32,000 bases of DNA from an uncultured bacterium. GTDB taxonomy: Bacteria; Patescibacteriota; Gracilibacteria; UBA1369; PNNO01. Under the pieces are notes generated by a model that worked only from the letters and a program-made list of their open reading frames with translations, ran no database searches and had not been told where the DNA came from. Shown here piece after piece: positions 17,271 to 32,000 of the stretch (position 1 is its first letter; each line of letters starts with the position of its first letter). A program made the position numbers and the translations under genes. The stretch lies in the NCBI GenBank assembly GCA_963704705.1, contig OY969931.1, forward strand, positions 750,001-782,000, in the 5' to 3' direction.

Positions 17271-17394
<124 letters not shown>

Positions 17395-17547: not shown

Positions 17548-20562
<3,015 letters not shown>

Positions 20563-20564
20563 GG

Positions 20565-20610
20565 TTGAACTTACTTATGACTAGCAATTTGTATTAATAA
20601 CAAATTGCTA
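20565..20610 (-). other. 23S 5' leader: 5' arm of the processing helix, overlapping a local 11-bp hairpin
   Basis: 20565-20593 pairs with the 3' trailer (see 17445-17547). 20582-20592 (TAGCAATTTGT) and 20600-20610 (ACAAATTGCTA) form a perfect 11-bp stem with a 7-nt loop. Confidence 0.7.
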
Positions 20611-20673
20611 ATTCTTTTAAAATTAAAAGTTAAATTGCATTTTTACATTTACTCCTATTTATCAAGGATCAAA

Positions 20674-20707
20674 TAAAAAAAAGTGTGTATCTATATGTGT
20701 ACACACT
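20674..20707 (-). terminator. Rho-independent terminator between the Cys-rich gene and the 23S
   Basis: On the minus strand: AGTGTGTA, 10-nt loop, TACACACT (20707-20682), followed by T7-A-TTT (20681-20671). Confidence 0.6.
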
Positions 20708-20865
20708 CCTTCGTCTTAAAACTTGCGTAACGTTTTTTACGTTTTAAAATAAAAGGGTATGTACGGGGTTTTTGGCATAAAATAGGTAAAAACTCACTTT
20801 AAGCTCTAGGATTATATAGAATCATAATATTCAAGTCAAGCTTTTTTTGCTTTTATTTATACGAA

Positions 20866-21126
20866 TTAATTGCCACATCCCGAGCATCCGCTCAAGTTCG
20901 CATTTCCGTCATTATCAACTCCACAACTTGCGACTTCACAACCAGCGCAATTACACGCAGCCTTATCACATCCAAGCATAATTCCGGAAGCAAGGAGAAC
21001 TGCCGCTATCAGACCTTTTTTCTTTGCTAAAAAAGAAAGAATTTTAGAACCCCCTTCTTTTTGTTCGGGATTACCAGCGGGTTCAACAGAAGAAATTGAC
21101 TCTAATTGATTTAGTTTATCTGACAT
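20866..21126 (-). CDS. Small cysteine-rich putative lipoprotein or lipopeptide (8 Cys in the last 33 residues)
   Basis: 86 aa. A hydrophobic segment LIAAVLLASGIMLGC ends in a lipobox-like LGC. The tail is CDKAACNCAGCEVASCGVDNDGNANLSGCSGCGN. It has its own promoter (21158-21185) and terminator (20674-20707). Confidence 0.6.
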   Translation of the reverse strand: MSDKLNQLESISSVEPAGNPEQKEGGSKILSFLAKKKGLIAAVLLASGIMLGCDKAACNCAGCEVASCGVDNDGNANLSGCSGCGN

Positions 21127-21157
21127 GTTTAAAAAGTTTAATAATTATTAAGACGTA

Positions 21158-21185
21158 ATTTTAGCATGTTTTATAAACTTGTCAA
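21158..21185 (-). promoter_or_regulatory. Strong promoter of the Cys-rich gene
   Basis: On the minus strand: TTGACA (21185-21180), 16-nt spacer, TGcTAAAAT (21166-21158). Confidence 0.6.
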
Positions 21186-21188
21186 TCT

Positions 21189-21440
21189 TTATTCAGGTGG
21201 CATGAAAAATATAGGACCAAATACAGTTCTCATAAATGTCTGCAAAGTATCGGTTATATATAATAAGGTAATAATAAAGGTCGCAACACCTAATAATAAT
21301 ATTAAAGTATGAGTTCCGCCCATGCCGAGATATTTCTCTGCAAAACCAATACTTCCGGTAAAGTCTTTTATTTTGGCTCTGTAAATAATAATTAAAAAAG
21401 ATAAAGGGAATCCGAATAATCCAAACAAAAATTTATCCAT
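21189..21440 (-). CDS. Small 2-TM membrane protein, hypothetical
   Basis: 83 aa with two hydrophobic helices (FLFGLFGFPLSFLIIIY and THTLILLLGVATFIITLLYI). An extended -10, TGgTAAAAT, lies on the minus strand at 21476-21468. Confidence 0.55.
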   Translation of the reverse strand: MDKFLFGLFGFPLSFLIIIYRAKIKDFTGSIGFAEKYLGMGGTHTLILLLGVATFIITLLYITDTLQTFMRTVFGPIFFMPPE

Positions 21441-21498
21441 TGTGGCATAGTTATTTATTCTTAAACTATTTTACCACAATGGATAAGATTTAGAAGTA

Positions 21499-21969
21499 TT
21501 ATTGAAGAGATTGTGCTTTATCTGCAAGTCTTGTACCGTTTGAACCTTTTTCGCGAACATCAGAAATCGCTTTTCTGCATGAATTTGCTTTATCTGCATT
21601 GTCTTTTCTTTCAGCAGTATCTAATGCAGATCTAAGTCTTGCTTCTACTTCGAAAGATTTATTATTTAGAATTTTGCAAGCATCATATGCGTCTCTAAAT
21701 AAAACATCTTCGCTGTCTCCGTCGTCTCTTCTTTCCATACGTTTAACTCTTTGTTTACAGGTCTTTTCCAGTTTTATGAGCATTTCTTTGTCAGCTTTTC
21801 CTTGCTGACCAGCGCATTTTTTATAATCACTTGAACAAGCAATTACACCAGGTATTACCGAAGCTATTAAAGCAATTGTTGCCATTTTTAATCTGGCCAT
21901 GCCGGAACTATGATTTTTATTAGCTTCAACCCCAATTCGAGGTCTGCCTTGTTTTTCTAAATTTTCCAT
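21499..21969 (-). CDS. Putative helical lipoprotein. The start may be the internal ATG at 21900.
   Basis: MARLKMATIALIASVIPGVIAC is a signal peptide with a VIAC lipobox. The mature part is charged, predicted helical, and has 4 additional Cys. The 23 residues before MARLK may not be translated. Confidence 0.6.
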   Translation of the reverse strand: MENLEKQGRPRIGVEANKNHSSGMARLKMATIALIASVIPGVIACSSDYKKCAGQQGKADKEMLIKLEKTCKQRVKRMERRDDGDSEDVLFRDAYDACKILNNKSFEVEARLRSALDTAERKDNADKANSCRKAISDVREKGSNGTRLADKAQSLQ

Positions 21970-22061
21970 AATTATTTGGTTAATTTTAAATTAGGTTATA
22001 TTTTGCTATATTTTTATATATTTGTCAAGGTTAAAGTAATACATTTAAATAAATATTTTTC

Positions 22062-30695: not shown

Positions 30696-32000
<1,305 letters not shown>

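Follow-up and report, generated by a model that had tools for sequence, protein, structure and literature searches.

A cysteine-rich small envelope gene abuts a 23S rRNA leader with two mutually exclusive folds in an uncultured Patescibacteriota bacterium

The interval 20674-21969 of a 32,000-nucleotide (nt) stretch of DNA from an uncultured bacterium of the Patescibacteriota (GenBank assembly GCA_963704705.1, contig OY969931.1, positions 750,001 to 782,000; this whole stretch is called the window here) lies directly upstream of the 23S ribosomal RNA (rRNA) gene, and its last gene, which encodes an 86-residue cysteine-rich protein, had been described in an original prediction made from the sequence as a discrete unit with its own promoter and its own terminator. 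The interval consists of two separate, abutting units, namely the cysteine-rich gene and the leader of the 23S rRNA gene. Within the leader, a long helix and a terminator hairpin are mutually exclusive folds, which are both conserved and covarying. A joint explanation, in which the gene encodes a cysteine-rich lipopeptide and the leader is a switch set by ribosomes, is considered the probable one. The wider proposal is more doubtful and is advanced tentatively: that throughout the order a short open reading frame (ORF) attenuates the 23S-5S unit, with ribosomes terminating its transcription, and that the cysteine-rich gene represents a new class of N-terminally extended, cysteine-knotted surface lipopeptides.

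The cysteine-rich gene and the 23S leader

The features of the two units are as follows, from upstream to downstream.

21158-21185, minus strand: promoter of the cysteine-rich gene, TTGACA-N16-TGcTAAAAT, with an extended -10 element (scan score 11/12, plus the TG)
20866-21126, minus strand: gene of the 86-residue precursor (ORF and homologues)
21022-21126, minus strand: codons 1-35, hydrophilic N-terminal extension
20968-21021, minus strand: codons 36-53, KKK, hydrophobic helix and MLG-C
20869-20967, minus strand: codons 54-86, tail of 33 residues with six further cysteines
20840-20861, minus strand: A-tract ahead of the 23S-5S promoter
20811-20839, minus strand: promoter of the 23S-5S operon, TTGACT-N17-TATAAT (scan score 11/12)
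20737-20778, minus strand: mini-ORF of 13 codons, ATG to TAA, overlapping the 5' strand of the antiterminator helix
20699-20764, minus strand: long antiterminator helix of 26 base pairs, with a small apical hairpin inside (RNAalifold)
20674-20707, minus strand: terminator hairpin of 8-9 base pairs followed by eight U (fold of -6.2 kcal/mol)
20658-20671, minus strand: boxA-like word TGATCCTTGATAAA directly after the U-run, replaced at the same place by TGTTCTTTAACAAT or TGCTCATTGAAAAT in relatives

The stop codon of the cysteine-rich gene occupies 20866-20868, and a second consensus promoter (20839-20811), which the original prediction had missed, starts 26 nt after it. Since this promoter, also scoring 11/12, separates the stop codon from the hairpin, the gene is not a discrete promoter-to-terminator unit. 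The hairpin with its T8 run at 20707-20674, previously taken as the canonical intrinsic terminator of the gene, does exist (a consensus scan omitted it on the minus strand, given its loop of more than 8 nt), but it is part of the 23S leader. Three genomes of more remote relatives have these elements, from the promoter through helix, hairpin and T-run to boxA, between the gene of an 83-residue membrane protein and the 23S gene, and no cysteine-rich gene separates those two genes there. Because the leader keeps its elements where a different gene lies upstream, the hairpin is not the cysteine-rich gene's own terminator. Judged from its sequence, the cysteine-rich gene is thus taken to be independently promoted, yet not independently terminated, and to receive read-through from the 83-residue protein gene as well; strong expression, judged from the promoter alone, is plausible. 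From a practical point of view, a hairpin and U-run beside an rRNA gene should not be taken as the terminator of the gene upstream.

The spacer downstream of the cysteine-rich gene is better conserved than the gene itself in a DNA alignment of six relatives. Four parts of it do not vary: the promoter (TTGACT...TATAAT), a segment of about 100 nt, the hairpin and the run of T. According to RNAalifold, the partner of the hairpin's 5' arm is instead a segment further upstream. Nine leader sequences were used to build a covariance model, which matched 25 of the 151 genomes of the order, belonging to six families, with a single match in each; a TTGAC-N17-TATAAT promoter stands just ahead of every match, and the conserved 5' motif of the 23S gene follows 100-220 nt downstream in 26 of 28 distinct leaders. 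Across these 28 sequences, 93% of the cells of the long helix are paired and 19 of its 26 pairs change on both sides, against 28-56% paired in a slide control with partners shifted by one to three columns, although the alignment used for the pair counts had been fitted to the covariance model, which favours the structure and has to be set against these numbers. The free energy of the helix ranges from -20 to -39 kcal/mol. Each of the 28 leaders also has a terminator hairpin (-6 to -14 kcal/mol) with T6-T10 behind it, and the 5' arm of this hairpin shares nucleotides with the 3' strand of the helix in each of them. No Rfam family was found in 20540-21200 at gathering or permissive thresholds, which returned only chance matches to snoRNA and miRNA families.

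No promoter was called on the minus strand between the hairpin (20674) and the 23S gene (20561), which is the only copy in the genome, so that all 23S transcription must cross the hairpin, and therefore the hairpin is not a simple constitutive terminator. The alternative that it constitutively ends the mRNA of the cysteine-rich gene, with the promoter at 20839 yielding a free RNA of about 130 nt and the 23S promoter located further downstream, would account for the intrinsic terminator form of the hairpin and U-run, and a weak promoter word, TTGATA-N15-TGtAAAAAT, can be read at 20666-20640. This word is nevertheless the boxA motif itself, canonical in relatives; the element occurs once per genome and always directly before the 23S gene, the hairpin competes with a helix that covaries and has much the greater stability, and the element matches no Rfam family. 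This alternative is regarded as very unlikely.

The mini-ORF and the proposed setting of the switch

The mini-ORF starts 13 nt before the long helix and ends in the helix's apical region. Within the organism's own family, all 12 distinct leaders have a mini-ORF of this length, without insertions or deletions; three other families of the order have an ATG ORF of 11-14 codons at the same position, in which the stop codon and even the reading frame differ. A mini-ORF beginning with ATG is found in 6 of 10 lineages, where about 0.13 would be expected from shuffled sequences, and one with any start codon in 9 of 10, where about 0.29 would be expected. The absence of a Shine-Dalgarno sequence in front of it is uninformative because this organism hardly uses such sequences: GGAG precedes 1.8% of the long ORFs genome-wide, while the 3' end of the 16S rRNA keeps CCUCC. 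Start regions throughout the genome are A/U-rich and G-depleted.

The minimum-energy fold of the free leader is the helix, with no terminator, so that read-through is predicted for the free RNA, whereas constrained folds give the terminator hairpin for each position at which a ribosome-sized footprint was placed (start codon, codon 5, codon 8 and stop codon). The following course of events is therefore proposed as a model. Transcription of the 23S-5S unit would begin at the promoter downstream of the cysteine-rich stop codon; a ribosome on the mini-ORF would cover the helix's 5' strand and so let the terminator form, whereupon transcription of the 23S and 5S genes would abort. Without translation of the mini-ORF, read-through would follow, and translating ribosomes would in this way feed back on the synthesis of large-subunit rRNA. 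Transcripts of the cysteine-rich gene would cross the rRNA promoter and either end at the conditional terminator or continue into the 23S gene. A version in which the mini-ORF distinguishes 30S from 70S particles was dropped because an initiating footprint already flips the predicted fold.

Several observations weigh against the setting of the switch by ribosomes. The ATG is absent from 4 of the 10 lineages, and the enrichment of mini-ORFs is suggestive only, its significance being overstated because the lineages are related. The encoded peptide is poorly conserved and shows no third-position bias, only M-x-K-x-x-Y-I...K-T being kept within the family, where the residues are partly constrained by the helix, and no sensing codons or codon runs were seen in the mini-ORF. 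Moreover, a metagenome contig of a close relative (L016:1753-1903) carries a TAC-to-TAA change at codon 6 of the mini-ORF and has one pair of the helix broken; this stop may reflect natural variation or a mistake in the assembly. The absence of the ATG in some lineages and the poor conservation of the peptide would fit a real switch that is set by something other than ribosomes, be it a protein such as a free ribosomal protein or a Nus factor, or the speed of the polymerase as affected by nucleoside triphosphates (NTP) or ppGpp, or else a helix that serves mainly as a processing site for RNase III; RelA/SpoT homologues are encoded in the genome, and the helix is long enough for RNase III. On the other hand, the organism's own family and three others of the order retain a short ORF over the helix's 5' strand, even as stop codon and frame change, and outside the 29-nt 5' region no other conserved candidate for a ligand-binding element was seen in the leader. 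A switch of this kind is considered rather unlikely, yet a serious competing reading of the leader.

The proposed ribosome-set switch can be compared with two groups of known systems. Leader-peptide attenuators include trpL, hisL and pheL, as well as the antibiotic-sensing leaders of bmrCD, vmlR and msrD (PMC4191407; 10.1101/2021.11.29.470318). They share with the 23S leader a short leader ORF, exclusive antiterminator and terminator folds, and a decision that depends on the position of the ribosome. They differ in that here rRNA is controlled, only two structures compete, with no equivalent of segment 1, the ORF has no runs of sensing codons, a boxA follows the terminator, and the predicted logic is that translation means stop and no translation means go. 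The leaders of rRNA operons, in turn, use boxB-boxA-boxC antitermination (PMC10250234), and resemble the 23S leader in the consensus promoter with an A-tract and in the hairpin followed by boxA ahead of the rRNA and its processing helix. In the 23S leader, by contrast, the hairpin carries a U8 run and competes with a long covarying helix, with a mini-ORF upstream. The 16S leader of the same genome (G000:C1:782300-782395, just past the end of the window) has a TTGACT-N17-TAGAAT promoter, a plain boxB-like hairpin and a canonical boxA, TGTTCTTTAACA, without the extras of the 23S leader; because it has neither a U-run terminator nor a mini-ORF, only the 23S-5S unit carries the switch. A literature search found no description of a leader-ORF attenuator in front of rRNA genes.

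How rRNA output is matched to translational capacity is an old question, to which that of balancing 16S against 23S once the two are unlinked is related. In this order, whose members are ultra-small, the 16S and 23S genes would be transcribed separately, and a conserved switch with a mini-ORF before the only 23S gene makes the question of rRNA balance directly testable. If the proposed mechanism is true, the leader would hard-wire the ribosome feedback that has long been proposed for rRNA control. As a further observation, a weak, AU-rich hairpin containing the mini-ORF start codon can form from roughly the first 30 nt of the leader (20778-20807), and comparable 5' hairpins appear in folds of relatives' leaders; this hairpin may tune initiation at the mini-ORF.

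The cysteine-rich gene and its product

The 86-residue ORF is, judging from sequence comparison, a real and selected gene with its own conserved promoter. The ratio of nonsynonymous to synonymous substitution (dN/dS) is 0.09-0.13 for codons 36-86, covering helix and tail, at dS of 0.5-1.1, and 0.2-0.57 for codons 1-35; because these regional values differ, helix and tail are strongly constrained as protein, while the head is translated and evolves more freely. The first ATG is the sole canonical in-frame start ahead of the hydrophobic helix, and its distance from the promoter is fixed. The promoter, which begins 3 nt past the stop codon of the 83-residue protein gene, had already been recognized at 21185-21158, and this assignment holds: GTTGAC and TGnTAnnAT lie at equal distance from the ATG in six members of the genus (alignment A6). 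The support comes from conservation and not from the count of promoter-like words, which are not enriched in this AT-rich stretch (9 against 9.8 expected in shuffled sequence), and the same applies to the 23S-5S promoter.

The distribution of the family is narrow. Three metagenome proteins share 65-76% identity with the 86-residue product, homologues with 36-46% identity occur in two genomes of its genus, and a profile built from seven family members matched 8 clusters among 1.84 billion representative proteins. In a profile search of the order, 4 of 151 genomes had the family, all of them in the organism's own family, so that conservation across genomes of the candidate phyla radiation (CPR) fails, the protein being confined to a few genera of one family. 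A genome of the same genus (L032) has the 83-residue protein gene directly before the 23S promoter with no cysteine-rich gene in between, and in two other genera (L029 and L030) the cysteine-rich gene lies elsewhere in the cluster. No described family was matched by the protein, its tail or other family members in Pfam and NCBIfam at E values up to 1, and a sequence search of the Protein Data Bank (PDB) found nothing significant (E of at least 0.65), in agreement with the earlier statement that no family could be recognized.

The precursor consists of a hydrophilic head of about 35 residues, KKK, a hydrophobic helix of 14 residues, small residues, an invariant cysteine and a polar, cysteine-dense tail. 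The arrangement of the KKK n-region followed by the h-region GLIAAVLLASGIML is kept in 12 family members, among which Met1, Ala42, C53 (right after the helix) and C58 are the only invariant residues. The lipobox M-L-G-C, with Met at -3 and an invariant cysteine, fits the relaxed PROSITE pattern, and position -1 is Gly or Ser in most family members. Seven cysteines are present when that of the lipobox is counted and six in the 33 residues after it, not the eight that had been attributed to the tail. Conservation of their pattern extends only to C53 and C58, and the other positions are not invariant. For lipid attachment, the genome encodes three lgt genes (PF01790) and one lspA gene (PF01252, signal peptidase II), all above the cut-off, which answers positively the question whether a lipoprotein maturation pathway is present. 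It also encodes VKOR and four DsbA-like thioredoxins, and exported cysteines are therefore likely to be oxidized. One lgt paralogue follows a DsbA-like (Thioredoxin_4) gene of the same strand at a distance of 37 nt (G000:C1:339351-340601), an arrangement that hints at coupled lipidation and disulfide formation. Peribacteria have been described as having multiple copies of lgt and cysteine-rich proteins that are exported (PMC4736985).

The product was earlier proposed to be a lipid-anchored, cysteine-dense peptide. It does look exported, lipobox-bearing and cysteine-dense by sequence, the pathway is encoded, and the position of the cysteine at residue 53 is atypical. A lipid-anchored, disulfide-bonded surface peptide is, on balance, the favoured and moderately probable reading. 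The precursor would insert with its N terminus inside and its C terminus outside, the Lgt/LspA pathway would most likely lipidate Cys53 and cleave before it, and the mature product would be a surface lipopeptide of 34 residues whose six other cysteines would be oxidized to disulfides by the VKOR/DsbA-like machinery. Such a lipopeptide would be one of the fast-evolving cysteine-rich envelope products typical of Peribacteria and may be an accessory or a cargo of the divergent MacAB-like exporter encoded nearby.

Some findings run counter to this proposal. In ordinary lipoprotein signals the lipobox cysteine falls within about residues 15-35, and a rule-based scan, on which the genome-wide survey of lipoproteins was based, placed it at about residues 18-23 in the ordinary lipoproteins of this genome, compared with position 53 here. 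Asn occupies position -1 in three of the eight clusters, compared with G, A or S in the other lipoboxes of the genome. The number of later cysteines ranges from 3 to 6 across the family, and consequently no fixed disulfide pattern is conserved, while the AlphaFold2 model of the protein and its tail is of low confidence (predicted local distance difference test, pLDDT, of 51) and unusable. As for the N-terminal extension, it was correctly noted for both lipoprotein-like ORFs of the cluster and is retained in relatives. A handful of other proteins of the genome, at least three, carry a hydrophilic head of about 30 residues before a good lipobox according to the same scan, which overlooked the 156-residue neighbour, whose hydrophobic region contains a Pro, but alignment shows the same extended layout there. 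Since other proteins share the extended head, a local class of precursors appears more likely than a mis-called start. Extended-head lipobox proteins are found around 608188, 886145 and 38843 of G000:C1 and at 21499-21969 of the window; their heads often begin with MS/ME-x-K-L, with an ILSxL-like word ahead of the helix, and they may be a distinct targeting class.

The late cysteine and the Asn at -1 in three clusters would both be explained if the product were an uncleaved, unlipidated bitopic small membrane protein with a cytoplasmic head of about 35 residues, one helix and a cysteine-rich outer tail, which could regulate or assist a membrane complex such as the neighbouring MacAB-like exporter, comparable to MgrB, AcrZ or YknW. 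The conserved length of the N-terminal extension, the constraint on it (dN/dS as given above), its retained ILSxL motif and the location of the gene next to the exporter operon in the organism's own family are in line with this idea. It is judged unlikely, given the invariant cysteine straight after the helix, the Gly or Ser at -1 in most members, and the combination of extended layout and good lipoboxes in the 156-residue neighbour and at least three other proteins of the genome, and the absence of the gene from several genomes (L022, L023, L027 and L028) that keep the exporter, the lipoprotein and the 83-residue protein genes. The idea offered originally, a metallothionein-like Cu/Zn chelator or a surface redox buffer with reduced thiols, draws on the CxC and CxxC spacings, on the 7 cysteines in 34 residues, and on the C-x-C just after the anchor, which is the best-conserved feature of the tail. 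Against it, no metallothionein or other metal-binding family was matched in Pfam, NCBIfam or PDB, and the best PDB matches were non-significant CxxCH heme motifs, in a search with a peptide that contains no His; the weak alignments to cytochrome c3 CxxC motifs were rejected for the lack of His and for E values of at least 0.65. The extracytoplasmic site, VKOR and the DsbA-like oxidases favour disulfides, the distal cysteine positions are not conserved and no metal-homeostasis genes lie nearby, so that chelation or buffering appears distinctly improbable, its probability overlapping with those of the lipopeptide and bitopic readings. A toxin-like role, likewise offered originally, is a guess. 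Finally, a cysteine-rich C-terminal core alongside an ABC (ATP-binding cassette) exporter with its adaptor might recall a precursor of a peptide natural product or bacteriocin, with leader and core exported by the neighbouring system. The neighbouring genes, however, encode the exporter, two small envelope proteins and rRNA, with no radical-SAM, YcaO, lanthionine or C39-peptidase genes nearby; NCBIfam gave no match to SCIFF or another precursor family, the hydrophobic helix and lipobox form a membrane-targeting signal rather than a recognition leader, and the exporter is of the MacB type, which leaves this reading with hardly any credit.

The proposed lipopeptide shares with Lgt/LspA lipoproteins (PROSITE PS51257-type signal) a positively charged n-region, an h-region of 14 residues, an M-L-G-C word that fits the relaxed form of the lipobox and a genome that encodes lgt and lspA. 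It differs from them in some 35 extra hydrophilic residues, in the cysteine at position 53, in Asn at -1 in some members, and in a mature part of 34 residues of which one fifth are cysteines; its lipidation is a prediction. Small membrane regulators such as MgrB are likewise very small proteins with one helix and a short outer tail in which the conserved cysteines are the important residues; there is no sequence relation to them, no partner kinase is known here, and the 86-residue product has many more cysteines and a better lipobox. The gene adds a lineage-specific, strongly selected and very small cysteine-rich envelope product to the repertoire of uncultured, episymbiont-like bacteria, whose surface molecules are thought to mediate attachment, and it draws attention to lipoprotein precursors of an unusual class, marked by long hydrophilic heads.

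Neighbouring genes and the rRNA locus

The remaining features of the locus are listed below.

30696-32000, minus strand: 16S rRNA gene
22000-22028, minus strand: promoter-like site before the 156-residue protein gene, facing the exporter operon, TTGACA-N17-CAAAAT (scan score 10/12)
21499-21969, minus strand: gene of the 156-residue lipoprotein-like protein, with N-terminal extension and GVIA-C
21189-21440, minus strand: gene of the 83-residue two-helix membrane protein (ORF; two hydrophobic segments)
17548-20561, minus strand: 23S rRNA gene (Rfam)
17275-17389, minus strand: 5S rRNA gene, 3' of the 23S gene

The genome is a single contig of 1.37 Mb, 99% complete, and contigs of its relatives are labelled Candidatus Peribacteria or Patescibacteria. 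Genes for tRNA-Ala and tRNA-Ile are also on the minus strand, together with those for 16S, 23S and 5S rRNA. Between the tRNA genes and the 23S gene lies a plus-strand operon that encodes a MacA-like adaptor of 632 residues, an ABC ATPase and two MacB-type permeases, and from this exporter operon the three small minus-strand genes diverge, located between it and the 23S gene. The three co-oriented ORFs of 156, 83 and 86 residues are found just as originally described. A LolCDE-like role for the exporter was rejected, as its permeases match MacB far better than LolC/E. The same order, with the adaptor, the 156-residue protein, the 83-residue protein, the cysteine-rich gene and the 23S gene, is seen in those contigs of relatives that are long enough (L006, L007 and L015-L017).

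The mature part of the 156-residue protein is a three-helix bundle with four invariant cysteines, modelled by AlphaFold2 with a pLDDT above 90 for residues 48-155, and a Foldseek search of the PDB with this model returned only generic or designed helical bundles. The 83-residue protein is 83-95% identical within the genus and has no Pfam match. In each lineage of the order with a recovered leader (loci L024-L048), the 23S promoter is immediately preceded by a homologue of the gene for this protein, except in those genomes of this genus in which the cysteine-rich gene intervenes. The genes further upstream of this homologue vary by lineage, and two-helix proteins of this type, of about 80 residues, carry only the name 'hypothetical'.

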